NCBI GenBank assembly: GCA_037481775.1
Contig: JBBFKZ010000014.1
Location: forward strand, 1 to 45,976
Direction of reading: 5' to 3'
DNA length: 45,976 nucleotides
Source of the DNA: Candidatus Bathyarchaeia archaeon
GTDB lineage: Archaea > Thermoproteota > Bathyarchaeia > Bathyarchaeales > Bathycorpusculaceae
Shown here: positions 7,351-39,430 of the stretch, in pieces
Layout of the letters: each line of letters starts with the position of its first letter
Position numbering within the stretch: position 1 is the first letter of the stretch
Translations under genes and position numbers: made by a program
The notes under the pieces: generated by a model
The model's input: the letters and a program-made list of their open reading frames with translations, nothing else
Databases searched by the model: none
Told to the model about the DNA's origin: nothing

Positions 7351-9420
7351 TTGACAAAATTTGATGAGAAACATTGTCACAAATGGGCTTTACTACTGCG
7401 CGAAAGGCACGAGAAACTCAAGCAAGCGCTAGCCGCCATAACCCAAGAAGATTTTGGCAGCGCACGGCGATTGTTTTCTGAGGTCTTTTATGGCGTTTCC
7501 GGAAAGCATGCGGATCCTGGCATGGCTGGCTCTCTTCTATATCATATGGCTATGGTCACAAAGATGGAGACGGAAACGCGTTTACTTTTAACTGAACTGC
7601 GGATAGCACAGCCAGATGTTTCTAATGCTTTATCGCGCTTTCTTGGCGAGTTCGTTTCTGACATGTATGAGCTTACAAAAGGCTTTGCACCCTTAAATTT
7701 TGATCCAGCTTCTGTTGCCGCCAAAGCAAGCTTGAGTAACCATGAAAAAATTGACTTATTTACCAAACTAGACAAGAAAACCAAAACGTTAGAAGCTATT
7801 CTTGCCGGCCAGCAGCCTGAAGCAAGTAAGCATCTTGAAGGCTTATTCTTGGATTGGGCGAAGCATGTTGCTGAGATGCGTTTGCGGCAAGAATATGAAA
7901 CAATTAGGGGCTTCCTAATTACTGCTGAGTTAACAAAAGCTTTGGGCATTCAGCGCCTCAAAGATGCCATGATGAGGGTTCAAGAAAGGTTTGGTGAAGA
8001 AACTGTTCGTATTGCTTTAAACGTGACGCTGAAGGTTGGCATGCGCAGAGAAAAGCTTCAATCCATCATGCTAAGCGACCACTTCATCAATTATGCAATG
8101 AACGTTGAGCAGCTGGATGGGCGCATGCAGTTTCTGAATTGCCCAATTTTCGGAGGCCACAAGCGGATTTCAGAGGAACTAGGCCTAAGCGGTGAAATTG
8201 CATCTCTCTTCTGCACTCATTTCTGCTTTGCCCATGCAAAAGCCATGCTAAACACGGTTCTACCCTTCACTTTTGAACTGTGGCAGCCGCGACTGATGGC
8301 CAAGGATGGAATGTGCGAGTTTTACCTTAAACTTGCCTACTCGCCTGCCGCATCAGCGACGGAAAAGCATGTTCCACTTGTTTTATCTTGGAACTTTACG
8401 AGGAGATGCAACTTGAAATGCGCTCATTGCTACATAAACGCCACTACGCAGGAACTTGCTGATGAACTAACTACTGAGGAGTCAAAGCGTCTGATAGATC
8501 AGATCTGCGAAGTAAGCAGGCCGCTGCTCATCTTAAGCGGTGGCGAACCGCTTTTGCGCTCTGACGTTTATGAAATAATCAGCTACGGCGCTTCTAAAGG
8601 GTTAAAAATGGGCTTAGGCAGCAATGGCAGCCTCATAGATGATGCAGCAGCAAGGCGACTTAAAGATGCAGGCATAACCACGGTCTCAATCAGTTTGGAT
8701 TCGCATATTCCTGAGCAGCATGACGAGTTCCGGGGCGTAGCGGGCGCATGGGAGAAAGCTGTAGGCGCCATCAAAGCCCTAAGAGAAAACGGTGTACTCG
8801 TCCAAGTGAACACTACGGTGACGCAGCAGAATTACGATCAAATTGATGATATCATGTCGCTTGCCGAGTCGCTTGGTGTAGAAAACTTTCATCTGTTCTT
8901 TCTAGTGCCCACGGGTAGGGGCGCAAAAATTGCTGACATATCACCTGCTAAGTATGAAAGCATGATTAAAACAGTTTTTGCTAAGGCGGCGAGGCATAAG
9001 CTTAATGTGCGCCCTTCCTGCGCGCCCCAATTTATGCGGATAGCTAAGAACATGGGTTTGGACATGCGGCAGTGGATCCGCGGCTGCATTGCCGGGCTAT
9101 ACTATTGCCGTGTTTACGCGAATGGCGACATCACGCCCTGCCCGTATCTTCCAATCAAACTTGGCAATATCCGTGAAAAATCCTTCAAGGAAATATGGTT
9201 TGGCTCAGACATGTTCAAGGCGCTGCGGGACTTCAACGCTTTGAAAGGTAAATGCGGCATTTGTGAGTATAAGCTTGTATGCGGCGGCTGCCGTGCTCGT
9301 GCGTATGGGCTTTCAAGCGACTTCATCGACTACTGCGGCGATCTGCATGAGCCCGCCGAGGTAAGAGGCGATTATCTGGCTGAAGATCCATGGTGCATTT
9401 ATCAACCAATTAAGCCTTGA
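7351..9420 (+). CDS. Radical SAM/SPASM protein (AhbD/NirJ-like) with a ~340-aa N-terminal extension
   Basis: CNLKCAHC, SGGEPL, RPSCAPQF and the SPASM motif GCIAG...PCPY...KCGICEY...CGGCRARAY...DPWC. Confidence 0.85.
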   Translation: MTKFDEKHCHKWALLLRERHEKLKQALAAITQEDFGSARRLFSEVFYGVSGKHADPGMAGSLLYHMAMVTKMETETRLLLTELRIAQPDVSNALSRFLGEFVSDMYELTKGFAPLNFDPASVAAKASLSNHEKIDLFTKLDKKTKTLEAILAGQQPEASKHLEGLFLDWAKHVAEMRLRQEYETIRGFLITAELTKALGIQRLKDAMMRVQERFGEETVRIALNVTLKVGMRREKLQSIMLSDHFINYAMNVEQLDGRMQFLNCPIFGGHKRISEELGLSGEIASLFCTHFCFAHAKAMLNTVLPFTFELWQPRLMAKDGMCEFYLKLAYSPAASATEKHVPLVLSWNFTRRCNLKCAHCYINATTQELADELTTEESKRLIDQICEVSRPLLILSGGEPLLRSDVYEIISYGASKGLKMGLGSNGSLIDDAAARRLKDAGITTVSISLDSHIPEQHDEFRGVAGAWEKAVGAIKALRENGVLVQVNTTVTQQNYDQIDDIMSLAESLGVENFHLFFLVPTGRGAKIADISPAKYESMIKTVFAKAARHKLNVRPSCAPQFMRIAKNMGLDMRQWIRGCIAGLYYCRVYANGDITPCPYLPIKLGNIREKSFKEIWFGSDMFKALRDFNALKGKCGICEYKLVCGGCRARAYGLSSDFIDYCGDLHEPAEVRGDYLAEDPWCIYQPIKP

Positions 9421-9445
9421 GAAAAACGCATACGTGCACAGCGTG

Positions 9446-9460
9446 CAGAAACTTATTTAA
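9446..9460 (+). promoter_or_regulatory. BRE/TATA promoter
   Basis: CAGAAAC-TTATTTAA, about 23 nt upstream of the end-paired element starting at 9483. Confidence 0.55.
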
Positions 9461-9482
9461 GCAGTATAAGGCACCTCAGTAA

Positions 9483-9687
9483 AAGTTAAGGAGTGCACTT
9501 TGAAGTGGATCTTGGCAGCCCGCAAGCGCTCACGCCATCGGCAGGGTGCCTGTGGATAGCCGAAAAAGGACGCCGTTTAGAAGGAGCGAAAGATGAAGTG
9601 GCCTCAATTTGCCTACTGCCAATTCGAATTTTCAGAAGCGATAGCGCTCCACAAAACTGCCATGGCTTGCCCTAATTCACTTAACTT
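9483..9687 (+). ncRNA. Candidate ~205-nt structured ncRNA or leader upstream of mgtE
   Basis: The 5' and 3' ends pair (9483-90/9680-87). Inner helices are 9522-25/9667-70, 9534-38/9662-66, 9540-44/9657-61 and 9551-56/9648-53. A T-rich tract follows. Confidence 0.6.
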
Positions 9688-9697
9688 CAAACCATGT

Positions 9698-9740
9698 AAT
9701 TTTTCAATTTTTCTTGTTCCGCCTGCTTTTTCCTTTCTTA
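9698..9740 (+). terminator. T-rich archaeal terminator-like tract
   Basis: Successive T runs directly after the end-paired element. Confidence 0.4.
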
Positions 9741-9771
9741 ATTGCGGCTTAACTTTGGGGGAGACTGGAGC

Positions 9772-10971
9772 ATGACACACGCGGGCATGTCAAAAAGTTT
9801 CTGGGGGATGTTCAAGGAGATCTCCTTAGCTTATTTTTTTGATTTAGGCGGAATATTTGCAGGTTTTATGATAGCTTCTCAACTCAGCATCTTCCAGCTT
9901 TCGCCATGGGCTATAGCCATTTATCCAGCGATTGTAAGCGCGAAAGGCGTTATCGGCGGTTTACTTAGCGGTCGATTGGGCACAGCTTTACATTTAGGAA
10001 CTGTTTATCCAAGATTTTTAAAGAATACAAAAACCTTTTATGAACTGATTCAAGCTCTAATCGTTATAACTTTGGCAACAAGCGTTGCAATGAGTTGTGT
10101 TTCTTTAATTTTTGGTTCTCTGTTTTGGGGAATAACCTTTACCGAGTTTCCATCCATCTTAGCCGTTGTCTTGGCAACCATGGCTTTGGGTTTGATTATT
10201 ACTTTGCTGACGATTAAGGTGGCTTTCATATCTTTTTCACGCGGTTTAGATCCTGACATTGTAGTTTATCCAGTAATGTCCACCACTGCAGACATTATCA
10301 TAACGCTCTTTTACATCGCAGTGCTCAACATTTTCTTCTTCGATTTTCTAGGTCCATGGATAATCACCTTGATAGCTCTCATTCACGTTTTCCTCGTGCT
10401 TTACATCTTGCCCAAGAATTTACACCAACTCGAGTTTATCAAAACCATTAAAGAATCCATGGTTACGCTGCTGTTTGTAGCCTTCATCGTCAACGTAACT
10501 GGCACTGTTCTTAAGGGCATAAGCAATTTTGTGGAAAGCCGCAAAGAGGTTTACACAGTATATCCTGCTTTGATTGACATGGTTGGCGATGTTGGCTCCG
10601 TGGTTGGTTCTACAGCCACAACAAAACTTGCCTTAGGCTTGCTTTCCCCCTCTTTCTCTTCGATCAGAAACCATGTAAAGAACATTTTCAGCGCCTGGGC
10701 CGCCTCAATTATGATGTTCATTATTTTGGCAGTTTTATCTCTTTCAATGCTTGGAATGCTCTCATTAACTTCTTTTCTAAATCTTATTATGATCCTACTC
10801 ATCACCAACGTGATCGCTGTGGCTACAATAACTCTTGTATCTTATGCAGTTTCAATATTAACTTTCAGTCGAGGTCTAGACCCCGACAACTTTGTTATTC
10901 CACTTGAGAGTTCCCTTGCCGACAGCCTAACCACAATCTCCCTACTAATAGCCCTGATTATGGTGGGGTAG
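9772..10971 (+). CDS. MgtE/SLC41-like divalent cation transporter (two MgtE membrane domains)
   Basis: RLGTALHLG and two RGLDPD...P...D motifs. ATG at 9772 follows GGAG. Confidence 0.85.
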   Translation: MTHAGMSKSFWGMFKEISLAYFFDLGGIFAGFMIASQLSIFQLSPWAIAIYPAIVSAKGVIGGLLSGRLGTALHLGTVYPRFLKNTKTFYELIQALIVITLATSVAMSCVSLIFGSLFWGITFTEFPSILAVVLATMALGLIITLLTIKVAFISFSRGLDPDIVVYPVMSTTADIIITLFYIAVLNIFFFDFLGPWIITLIALIHVFLVLYILPKNLHQLEFIKTIKESMVTLLFVAFIVNVTGTVLKGISNFVESRKEVYTVYPALIDMVGDVGSVVGSTATTKLALGLLSPSFSSIRNHVKNIFSAWAASIMMFIILAVLSLSMLGMLSLTSFLNLIMILLITNVIAVATITLVSYAVSILTFSRGLDPDNFVIPLESSLADSLTTISLLIALIMVG

Positions 10972-11035: not shown

Positions 11036-11650
11036 ATGCCAAAATTTGAAAAAATAGAATACAAGCCCATTCCTGTCCGTGAACTTCTACTGGAAATGAA
11101 AAACCTCTCCGAGCTCATGATTGACTTGGCTTATTCAGCTGCTTTATTTAACGACAAAGATCTCGCCGAGGATGTTCTGGAGCTGGAAAGCCGCATTGAC
11201 ACCTTGGCTTACCTCTTAGATATTGAGATTATGATTGCAGCCAGAGACGCAAAGGACGCGGAAAGCCTGATAGGTGTTTCTACGGTGGCCGCTGCAGCAG
11301 ATAAAATCTCTGATGCTGCCGCTGACATTGCGGCTATAGTAACGCGTAAAATCGGCGTGCATCCCATAGTCGGCGAGATCTTCGAAAAAGTTGAAGAGCG
11401 CCTCATGAAGGCAACAGTTAAAGAAGGCTCCGAAATAATCGGGAAACAGATAGGCGAGCTTAATTTAGCGTCAGAAATGGGTGTTGACATAATTGCTATT
11501 CGCCGAAATAAAGATTGGATAATAAATCCAAGTAAGAGGGAGCGCATCTTCCTCGGGGATGTTCTGATAACACGAGGCGCCCCACTGGGCATTAGCGAAT
11601 TTAAGTTGCTTGTTGAAGGTCACCCATCACAAGCGGAGGCTTCTGCATGA
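11036..11650 (+). CDS. PhoU + TrkA-C (RCK-C) domain protein
   Basis: MKNLSELMIDLAYSA PhoU-like helices and C-terminal GVDIIAIRR...GDVLI. Confidence 0.85.
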   Translation: MPKFEKIEYKPIPVRELLLEMKNLSELMIDLAYSAALFNDKDLAEDVLELESRIDTLAYLLDIEIMIAARDAKDAESLIGVSTVAAAADKISDAAADIAAIVTRKIGVHPIVGEIFEKVEERLMKATVKEGSEIIGKQIGELNLASEMGVDIIAIRRNKDWIINPSKRERIFLGDVLITRGAPLGISEFKLLVEGHPSQAEASA

Positions 11651-12240
11651 CTGCGCTGAAGTATTTCGAGGAAATTGTGGAGCGCTTTGTAGAGCTGAAG
11701 AATACCTCTGAGCTTATGATTGATTTGGCTTACTCCGCGCTTATGCTAAACAGTAAAGAATTAGCCGAGGAAGTGCAGCGTCTCGAAGAATATGTGGATC
11801 AGTTGCATACTGATTTTGAGCTTCTGGCTTTGAAGAGCGATTTTAAGAAAGAAGAAGCATCTGGCTTTTTAGGGCTTATCAGGCTGGGTGTGGCAACCGA
11901 AAAAATTGCAGACGCCGCCGCGGAGATGGGCGAGGTTGTTTTAAGGGGTATTGAGCCACATCCCATACTAAAATTGGCCATACGGGAAGCGGAGGAAACT
12001 GTTACTCAAGTATGCGTGACTGAGGGTTCACCTCTTATGAACCGAACTTTGAAGGAGGCACGGGTGCATGAGGAGACAGGCATGTGGGTTCTGGTCATAA
12101 GGCGCGGTGAAAAAAGCCTGCGACCTAAACCTGATACCGTTATTCAGTTGGGCGACATCTTGATAGCTTCAGGTTACGCTGAAGGTGTTGATGCCTTTAA
12201 AAAGCTTGCTTCACCAGAACGCGTCTGCGATCTTGAGTAA
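11647..12240 (+). CDS. PhoU + TrkA-C (RCK-C) domain protein, paralogue
   Basis: LKNTSELMIDLAYSA and ETGMWVLVIRRG...GDILIASG. ATGA overlap with the previous gene. Confidence 0.85.
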   Translation: MTALKYFEEIVERFVELKNTSELMIDLAYSALMLNSKELAEEVQRLEEYVDQLHTDFELLALKSDFKKEEASGFLGLIRLGVATEKIADAAAEMGEVVLRGIEPHPILKLAIREAEETVTQVCVTEGSPLMNRTLKEARVHEETGMWVLVIRRGEKSLRPKPDTVIQLGDILIASGYAEGVDAFKKLASPERVCDLE

Positions 12241-39353: not shown

Positions 39354-39430
39354 GCCGCCGTAGCTCAGCTAGGTAGAGCGGCTGGCTGTTAACCAGTCGG
39401 TCATAGGTTCAAGTCCTATCGGCGGCGCCA
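39354..39430 (+). tRNA. tRNA-Asn (GTT), intronless, CCA encoded
   Basis: Acceptor GCCGCCG/CGGCGGC, D-arm, anticodon loop CTGTTAA, GGTTCAAGTCC and an upstream TTAAATA. Confidence 0.96.

Follow-up and report, generated by a model that had tools for sequence, protein, structure and literature searches.

A conserved, putatively translated leader before an MgtE-type transporter operon in Bathyarchaeia

Leader-based control of Mg2+ transporters, by riboswitches and by leader peptides, is well studied in bacteria, where the M-box (ykoK, RF00380) is a Mg2+ riboswitch found as a cis-acting leader before mgtE-type genes. A description of an archaeal counterpart was not found in a limited literature search. 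The region described here occupies positions 9446-9740 on the forward strand of a stretch of 45,976 nt (contig JBBFKZ010000014.1, assembly GCA_037481775.1, Bathyarchaeia; the whole stretch is referred to as the window). It is located directly 5′ of an MgtE-type divalent-cation transporter gene and two PhoU-TrkA_C genes, as had been stated in an earlier reading of the same DNA (the original prediction). It was found to contain a TATA-type promoter followed by the presence of a hairpin and three short open reading frames (ORFs), namely ORF A, mini-ORF C and the upstream ORF (uORF) B, none of which the original prediction had mentioned. On balance, positions 9447-9775 are probably the promoter and a cis-acting, translated regulatory leader or attenuator of the MgtE operon and not a free-standing RNA; a regulatory leader had been the second option of the original prediction, and it is this option that fits. 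The leader is a concrete, widely conserved candidate for leader control of an archaeal Mg2+ transporter.

The mgtL peptide of the mgtA leader in Escherichia coli and Salmonella contains an acidic/proline motif, its translation is aborted more readily at low Mg2+, and a filled exit tunnel counteracts the effect of a motif positioned late (bioRxiv 10.1101/2021.02.02.429294). Like mgtL, the present locus has a short upstream frame in the leader of a Mg2+ transporter gene, the translation of which would set expression, here as read from sequence, and the typical ORF A peptides contain an acidic, Pro-containing stretch after CLWMGE. The two are not related in sequence, belong to different domains of life and precede different transporter types; ORF A contains 56-64 codons whereas mgtL contains 17, and the acidic stretch of ORF A begins about 22 residues into the peptide, the copy in the window being less acidic. 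In Salmonella, translation of mgtQ, an ORF of 8 codons just before mgtB, is reported to raise the translation of this Mg2+ transporter gene, the mgtB ribosome-binding site being freed in the process (PMC8092293). The proposed relay from C to B to MgtE, with a hairpin over a start site, resembles this arrangement. However, mgtQ is a very short, intergenic ORF of a bacterial operon, whereas the present frames are nested or overlapping with ATGA overlaps. Unlike the M-box, the leader does not contain a multi-helix core, and only a hairpin of 10 bp is conserved.

A review gives NTGA as the commonest spacing motif of translational coupling in bacteria and archaea, ascribes archaeal polarity to FttA and reports for Haloferax a coupling which works at spacings below about 30 nt and weakens at longer ones (PMC12548453). 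The ATGA at 9593-96 (C/B) and the one at 9772-75 (B/MgtE) are like the NTGA motifs of termination-reinitiation. The known cases concern full-length genes, often of one complex, whereas the present case concerns a fast-evolving uORF which appears to come from the N-terminus of the gene itself. Ribosome profiling of Methanosarcina mazei placed about 10% of the unannotated small ORFs in 5′ untranslated regions, as proposed uORFs (PMC11456600); those are catalogue entries from another phylum, and none in the accessible part of that report is tied to MgtE. The present leader thus appears to differ from the bacterial Mg2+ leaders in being archaeal, in its nested frames and in a uORF made from the N-terminus of the regulated gene, which would be a case of a gene's own N-terminus converted into a coupling uORF.

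In a DNA search of 61 related genomes, the whole intergenic region was found in four of the five congeners, and only positions ~9446-9597 were matched in the other genera of the same GTDB family. A family-wide blastn search found this 5′ block in 23 of 332 genomes (8 of 70 genera). A covariance model was matched in 12 of the 151 genomes of an order sample, all of family f1 (11/35), and in none of the 115 genomes of 11 other families in that sample. The peptide profile of ORF A was matched in 34 of the 401 genomes of a class sample (33/103 in f1) and in none of its 297 genomes of other families. The sources and record titles of the matches were Bathyarchaeia or Bathyarchaeota. The leader was found in one GTDB family of Bathyarchaeia, in at least 18 genera. 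A second copy was not found in the genome of the window, where the next best DNA match had an E value of 0.27.

An MgtE-type gene was found within a few hundred bases 3′ of the leader in 47 of the 48 loci outside the window, a count which includes at least three places fetched twice (L071/L008, L062/L055 and L073/L056). The exception was L076 (1110-1500), which contains the same promoter and ORF A followed by a TrkA_C-like frame instead of MgtE, the MgtE query being without a tblastn match in that locus. The genus g17 gave no blastn match, yet was found to contain an orthologous MgtE with a diverged leader; a leader match was not found in 3 of the 33 g17 locus flanks (L104, L109 and L111). L046 was left out of the leader alignment. 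The genome G314 was found to contain two leader copies (L045/L052 and L059), each before its own MgtE paralogue.

The promoter was found where it had been predicted, with the string TTATTTAA at 9453-9460 as TATA box. Transcription would start at about 9480-9486, some 25 nt 3′ of the TATA box, a position placed there because of the usual archaeal TATA-to-start spacing. A scan for sigma-70 promoters and bacterial terminators found nothing, such models being inapplicable to archaea. In the 'typical' loci L060-L065, L067, L069 and L073 a further conserved block (...GAATATGGATTTTTGTTAAG...) was found 15-45 nt upstream of the TATA box, which may be a transcription-factor site; the window, in which the end of the upstream gene is at 9420, lacks this block.

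The frame of uORF B was found to contain no stop codons in 22 of 22 homologues, compared with 90 and 55 stop codons in the other two frames, and in shuffled bodies the probability of an open frame B was 0.03-0.16 per sequence. The length of uORF B in the homologues was 49-66 codons. Its stop codon was found at the MgtE start, overlapping it or a few nucleotides from it, after the MgtE Shine-Dalgarno (SD) sequence (22 homologues, most ≤8 nt; the outliers were one gap of 25 nt and one overlap of 19 nt). A conserved SD sequence and start codon, an open frame and a stop at the main start, which are the marks of a coupled uORF, were thus found together in B, and the frame stays open although the peptide it encodes lacks sequence conservation. 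The same ATG was found to be the start codon of MgtE in L011, L054-L056, L058, L062-L065 and L073, where the protein is extended in frame at its N-terminus by a short or a long stretch, and uORF B is therefore read as a split-off N-terminus of MgtE. The alignment of the MgtE N-termini in the homologues begins at M-[TS]-H-A-G. In the g88/g14 loci (e.g. L033, L034) a CUUCCC/CCUCCC stretch complementary to the SD sequence of B (GGGGAA) was seen by eye 13-20 nt after the B start, and the two might fold into a small hairpin with the start codon of B between them.

Archaeal RNA polymerase is terminated by oligo-T. The downstream T tracts of the original prediction were found as T5 at 9700-04, 9708-12 and 9727-31, all inside uORF B. 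Of the 22 homologues, 20 were found to contain a run of T5 or longer inside the B region, in most cases 100-135 nt past the ATG of B, and the density of T5 in the window copy (3 in 183 nt) is about 20-fold that of 26 long ORFs of the window (0.82 per kb). The cluster, a sense-strand oligo-T of conserved position between promoter and gene as in an attenuator, is a candidate archaeal termination or attenuation site.

The most conserved motif of the leader, GGGTGCCTGTGGATAG, reads as an SD-like stretch and a start codon, the latter being that of mini-ORF C. In 14 typical sequences its codons TTG, AAG, GGG and CTA were found to be without synonymous variation, and the flanking codons vary (the codon table leaves out L044, L053 and L057); because of this lack of synonymous variation the motif appears to be constrained at the nucleotide level. 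Of the 41 sequences containing the motif, about 25 have the arrangement from RTG to NTGA. Among the 10 g88/g14 sequences scored, mini-ORF C has only 3 codons left in 9, and it is open elsewhere largely because the stretch is T-poor. It was rejected as a universal element on account of both this truncation and the T-poor stretch, and it may be real or a by-product of T-poor composition.

The 3′ end of the 16S rRNA of this genome is GGAUCACCUCCU and was read as the anti-SD sequence; in the typical relatives, the SD-like site at the 5′ end of the leader is located 6 nt before the ATG of ORF A. Judged by its peptide sequence, ORF A is a diverged member of a small-ORF family of Bathyarchaeia. A profile of database proteins (A3), which contains no sequence from the window clade, was found to match 9505-9603 of the forward strand (E 8.9e-4, profile positions 3-35, no stop). 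The typical ORF A peptide consists of MKVELEGSLRKALLKGCLWMGESEGSPEGGQDEASQQ followed by a variable tail. A profile of 19 ORF A peptides found 65 predicted proteins, mostly of 56-64 aa and all unnamed or 'hypothetical', and the family was without a Pfam or NCBIfam match; these 65 metagenome 'hypothetical proteins' would be explained as upstream ORFs of MgtE. In 18 further loci of metagenome-assembled genomes, ORF A begins with AGGAGCGAAC-ATG about 45 nt after the TATA box.

Frame A was found to be open in most genera, and the start codons of A and B are 73, 76, 82, 85, 88 or 91 nt apart, a spacing which was 1 mod 3 in 28 of 30 sequences. The ratio of nonsynonymous to synonymous changes (pN/pS) was 0.55-0.56 in frame A, the lowest of the three frames, compared with 0.65-0.91 in the others, and with 0.74-0.91 where frame A had 0.55. 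The N-terminal 37 residues of ORF A are conserved with synonymous TGC/TGT and CTA/CTG/TTG codons, and the C-terminal half, which shares its DNA with B or MgtE in a different frame, is not conserved. An AlphaFold model of a typical A peptide had no confident fold, with a mean predicted local distance difference test score (pLDDT) of 60 and a predicted template modelling score (pTM) of 0.16. In the window clade a TTG stands at the ancestral A start position, which the loss of 1 nt has put out of frame. From residue 22 onwards, after CLWMGE, the typical A peptides contain GE(S/N)EGSPEGGQDE, and the window contains AEKGRRLEGAKDE; an mgtL-like ribosome-destabilising stretch in ORF A was considered and set aside as speculation only.

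The hairpin was found to contain an outer helix, TTGGC 9512-16 with GCCGA 9559-63, and an inner helix, CCGCA 9520-24 with TGTGG 9551-55, followed by the presence of the extra pairs C9527-G9548 and G9528-T9547 in the window clade; the RNAalifold consensus energy was only -7.4 kcal/mol. In 48 sequences, 95.4% of the cells were paired compared with 93.3 ± 0.3 in shuffles, and the covariation score was 0.207 compared with 0.179, with 0 of 500 shuffles as high in both tests, although related sequences can exceed column shuffles without any structure. The controls slid along the alignment were 25-43% paired. L031, L009, L044 and L045 were left out of alignment A5. The diverged leaders of g17 keep the stems, with loops of 14-19 nt compared with 26 nt in the window. 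The comparison makes a moderate case that the hairpin, in which the stems are conserved and the loop is hypervariable, is real. In the g17 loci L081 and L084-L112 an extra conserved stretch, TCTTTCAAAAACTTTAATCGGCAGTTAAAA, was found about 25-45 nt after the TATA box and before the hairpin, and it repeats the CGGCAG of the hairpin 5′ arm. L093 and L096 contain unrelated sequence in place of the hairpin.

Further downstream, TCCACA is a candidate alternative partner for the hairpin 3′ arm TGTGGA (9551-56). After the arm, the exact TCCACA was found at +91 in all five g1 sequences, where it is the helix of the original prediction, at +34 to +44 in 19 of the 21 g17 sequences keeping the arm and at +46 in two g14/g88 sequences, four more containing TCTACA; sequences without a TGTGGA-like arm are left out of this count. 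The predicted TGTGGA/TCCACA helix was thus found to recur in other genera, at different positions, which suggests two mutually exclusive pairings of the UGUGGA arm, either with CCGCA or with UCCACA.

A regulatory leader of this form would work as follows. The transcript would begin near 9484, 3′ of the TATA box, and ribosomes would load at the 5′ SD sequence (ORF A), at the core motif (C) and at the SD sequence of B. MgtE would be made mainly by ribosomes which finish B and reinitiate at the overlapping stop and start, and translation of B would keep transcription from ending early at the oligo-T tracts. How often ribosomes enter B may be set further upstream, by the hairpin, by the translation of ORF A or by both, the 3′ arm UGUGG(A) pairing either with CCGCA or with UCCACA inside B. 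Mg2+ is plausible as the signal only because of the regulated gene and the bacterial precedents mgtL and mgtQ. A bolder version, in which the locus would be the first archaeal cation-responsive attenuator, with the UGUGGA switch gating the relay from A/C to B to MgtE and the output tracking intracellular Mg2+, is rather doubtful. Its relay would combine reinitiation at the MgtE start with suppressed termination at the oligo-T cluster, and Mg2+ would be tracked either by way of how the ribosome or the nascent peptide behaves on ORF A or by way of a hairpin stability which depends on Mg2+. The parts of the leader can be mutated, namely the hairpin, the three start sites, the two ATGA junctions and the T-tract cluster.

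Table 1. Positions of the leader elements and of the genes around them, in window coordinates.
Feature	Position	Strand	Remarks
BRE/TATA block AGAAACTTATTTAAGC (BRE, transcription factor B recognition element)	9447..9462	+	TATA at 9453-9460; nearly invariant in all homologous leaders read
SD-like AAGGAGTG, 5′ end of leader	9488..9495	+	AGGAG conserved in alignments
Small ORF A	9505..9675	+	GTG start, 56 codons, TAA 9673-75; copy of the 'MKVELE..LLKGCLWMGE' family
Hairpin	9512..9563	+	10 bp, 26-nt loop here; minimum free energy (MFE) fold, centroid fold and RNAalifold consensus
Most conserved motif GGGTGCCTGTGGATAG	9544..9559	+	family consensus GRGGTGYCT-RTG-GATGG; inside 3′ arm of hairpin
Mini-ORF C	9552..9596	+	GTG start, 14 codons; TGA overlaps uORF B ATG (ATGA 9593-96)
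SD AAGGAG of uORF B	9581..9586	+	6 nt before ATG 9593; SD and ATG conserved in alignment
uORF B	9593..9775	+	60 codons; stop TGA 9773-75 overlaps MgtE ATG 9772-74 (ATGA)
TCCACA, complement of TGTGGA (9551-56)	9648..9653	+	invariant in 5/5 genus sequences
Three T5 tracts inside uORF B	9700..9731	+	40-70 nt before MgtE start
SD GGGGGAG of MgtE gene	9757..9763	+	GGAGG-type motif before MgtE in most homologues
Radical SAM + SPASM gene, 689 aa	7351-9420	+	upstream neighbour; Pfam
MgtE-type divalent-cation transporter gene, 399 aa from ATG 9772	9772..10971	+	PF01769, E 2e-23
Two PhoU + TrkA_C genes	11036-11650, 11647-12240	+	Pfam; downstream of MgtE

Several observations weigh against a translated regulatory leader. 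The support for the hairpin comes mostly from one-sided G-U changes, and only 4 cells change on both sides; in the window clade alone the hairpin was found to have no excess over shuffles (128/500 as high), and the typical loci keep the motif but not the hairpin. In g17 no ORF is kept across the hairpin, because the loop differences are not multiples of 3. The T-richness of B lowers the chance of stop codons in it. Within clades, the substitutions in A and B are without the third-position periodicity which the body of MgtE has, and for this reason both peptides appear to be barely constrained. A BLOSUM column-shuffle test of the differing codons speaks for frame A, which scored 468 compared with -1669 and -584 for the other frames, with 1 of 300 shuffles as high, but the test is partly circular, the representatives having been picked among intact frames. 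Frame A is interrupted early in L044, L053 and L057 and is not conserved in L009 and L046. The ORF A of the window starts with GTG 11 nt after AGGAG and not with ATG at the canonical SD spacing of 5-7 nt, and the translation of ORF A in the window clade is uncertain.

An RNA switch sensing a ligand or an ion (e.g. Mg2+) with the hairpin and the motif, in which CCGCA:UGUGG would alternate with UGUGGA:UCCACA and the frames would be secondary, is considered unlikely. It would account for stems kept around a hypervariable loop of 14-26 nt with length changes in g17 other than multiples of 3, for the nucleotide-level constraint on the motif, for the recurrence of the exact TCCACA complement in g1, g14/g88 and g17 and for the regulated gene being a cation transporter. 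However, the conserved structure is a 10-bp hairpin with a variable loop and the low consensus energy given above, no conserved pocket-like core was found in it, and the typical loci lack it altogether. The arm and its downstream partner have changed in L087 and L091 in ways which break the alternative pairing and do not compensate for it, partner sites are expected by chance at about 1.5 per 200 nt when G-U pairs are allowed (an estimate), and no Rfam match was found.

The view of ORF A as an ordinary first gene of the operon, which would encode a trans-acting protein of ~56-64 aa (a partner of MgtE or of PhoU-TrkA_C) and would reduce the nucleotide conservation to coding sequence plus promoter, is judged quite unlikely. 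It agrees with the prediction of ORF A in many metagenomes (the 65 proteins mostly of 56-64 aa), with the N-terminal 37 residues conserved through synonymous codons, with the canonical SD sequence and ATG in the typical loci and with an end of the frame about 25 nt before the first T5 tract. A gene under protein-level selection fits poorly with a pN/pS of ~0.55, which means weak constraint, with the low pLDDT and pTM of the model, or with a C-terminal half which lacks conservation and shares its DNA with B or MgtE in another frame. In g3, g54, g31 and g17 the leader persists although the frame is lost, several core codons are without synonymous variation, and neither Pfam nor NCBIfam gave a match.

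The leader may also be a relic without regulatory function, B being a decayed MgtE N-terminus and A and C chance frames; B would then be kept open only since ribosomes must reach the new start, in a purine-rich, stop-poor sequence. The fusion of B to MgtE in sister genera, the evolution of B without codon periodicity, and a mini-ORF C which is open largely through a T-poor stretch and truncated in g88 are all as a relic would have them. In at least 18 genera, however, the conservation of the promoter, the SD sequences, the motif and the hairpin stems goes far beyond that of the sequence around them, and many genera have kept the split form, in which B stops at the MgtE start, although substitutions are saturated and indels have occurred. 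A relic is therefore distinctly unlikely.

The original prediction had described a discrete, end-paired non-coding RNA of ~205 nt with its own promoter and terminator, and the strings on which it was built were found in place. The strings AAGTTAAG (9483-9490) and CTTAACTT (9680-9687) match exactly as reverse complements and form the 8-bp closing complement, followed by the presence of the small hairpin CACT-TTGA-AGTG (9496-9507), the long-helix strings GCAA/TTGC (9522-25/9667-70), GCCAT/ATGGC (9534-38/9662-66), GGCAG/CTGCC (9540-44/9657-61) and TGTGGA/TCCACA (9551-56/9648-53), the hairpin AGCG-ATAG-CGCT (9637-48) and the crossing 7-mer TTGGCAG/CTGCCAA (9512-18/9616-22). The fold of 9480-9690 had an MFE of -62.4 kcal/mol compared with -57.9 ± 4.3 in dinucleotide shuffles (z -1.04), 33 of 200 shuffles folding as stably, and the minus strand of the region likewise had no excess stability (z -0.28).

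The 42 predicted pairs were counted in alignment A4, which contains five species of the window's genus. There, 84.8% of the cells were paired compared with 84.0 ± 0.6 in shuffles (95/500 as high), and 2 cells were changed on both sides. The inner three pairs of the closing stem were found to be unpaired in 1 to 4 of the 5 sequences, and the GCAA/TTGC and GCCAT-GGCAG helices were 65-74% paired, so that the end-paired architecture is specific to the window. The TGTGGA/TCCACA helix and the AGCG hairpin are uninformative in the genus because they never vary there. The AGCG-ATAG-CGCT hairpin was rejected as a by-product, since in other genera the stretch reads as Ala-x-Ala codons (GCN nnn GCN) and its pairing register shifts. 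The crossing helix was 91% paired in the genus, with uninformative variation, and its TTGGC is also needed by the conserved hairpin, so that the two compete. Beyond the genus, an alignment is possible only for the 5′ part, ~9446-9597. The leader is conserved across genera, and covariation was not found in the pairs of the original prediction.

No match to a known RNA family was found at the Rfam gathering score in 9446-9740, as had been expected. A permissive Rfam scan (E ≤ 10, 9380-9800, both strands) gave DLEU2_2 on the minus strand as its sole row, a chance match (20 bits compared with a cut-off of 45, E 3.5), and the resemblance to an M-box was not borne out, RF00380 being without a match even at E ≤ 10. 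The element is thus conserved and outside the known RNA families, as claimed; a discrete structured RNA is not what is conserved, since excess stability and covariation were not found and the closing stem is specific to the window. Much of the conservation is better explained by the promoter, the ribosome-binding sites and the short reading frames. A free-standing RNA, for which the TATA box, the exact 8-bp complement, the downstream T tracts and the missing Rfam match speak, is very improbable in view of the ordinary fold stability, a closing stem and two long helices which break in congeners without covariation, a 3′ half which beyond the genus is alignable only as a reading frame, and an element always attached to MgtE (L076 apart).

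Among the neighbouring genes, a PhoU + TrkA_C gene was found again 3′ of MgtE in the homologous loci which extend far enough. The N-terminal part of the upstream radical SAM/SPASM protein was found to contain a weak, sub-threshold DUF520 match (E 0.0037). Elsewhere in the window, two RNAs were found at the Rfam gathering level, a DUF3800-X RNA at 1743-1814 of the minus strand (69.3 bits) and a tRNA at 39354-39427 of the plus strand (71.1 bits).

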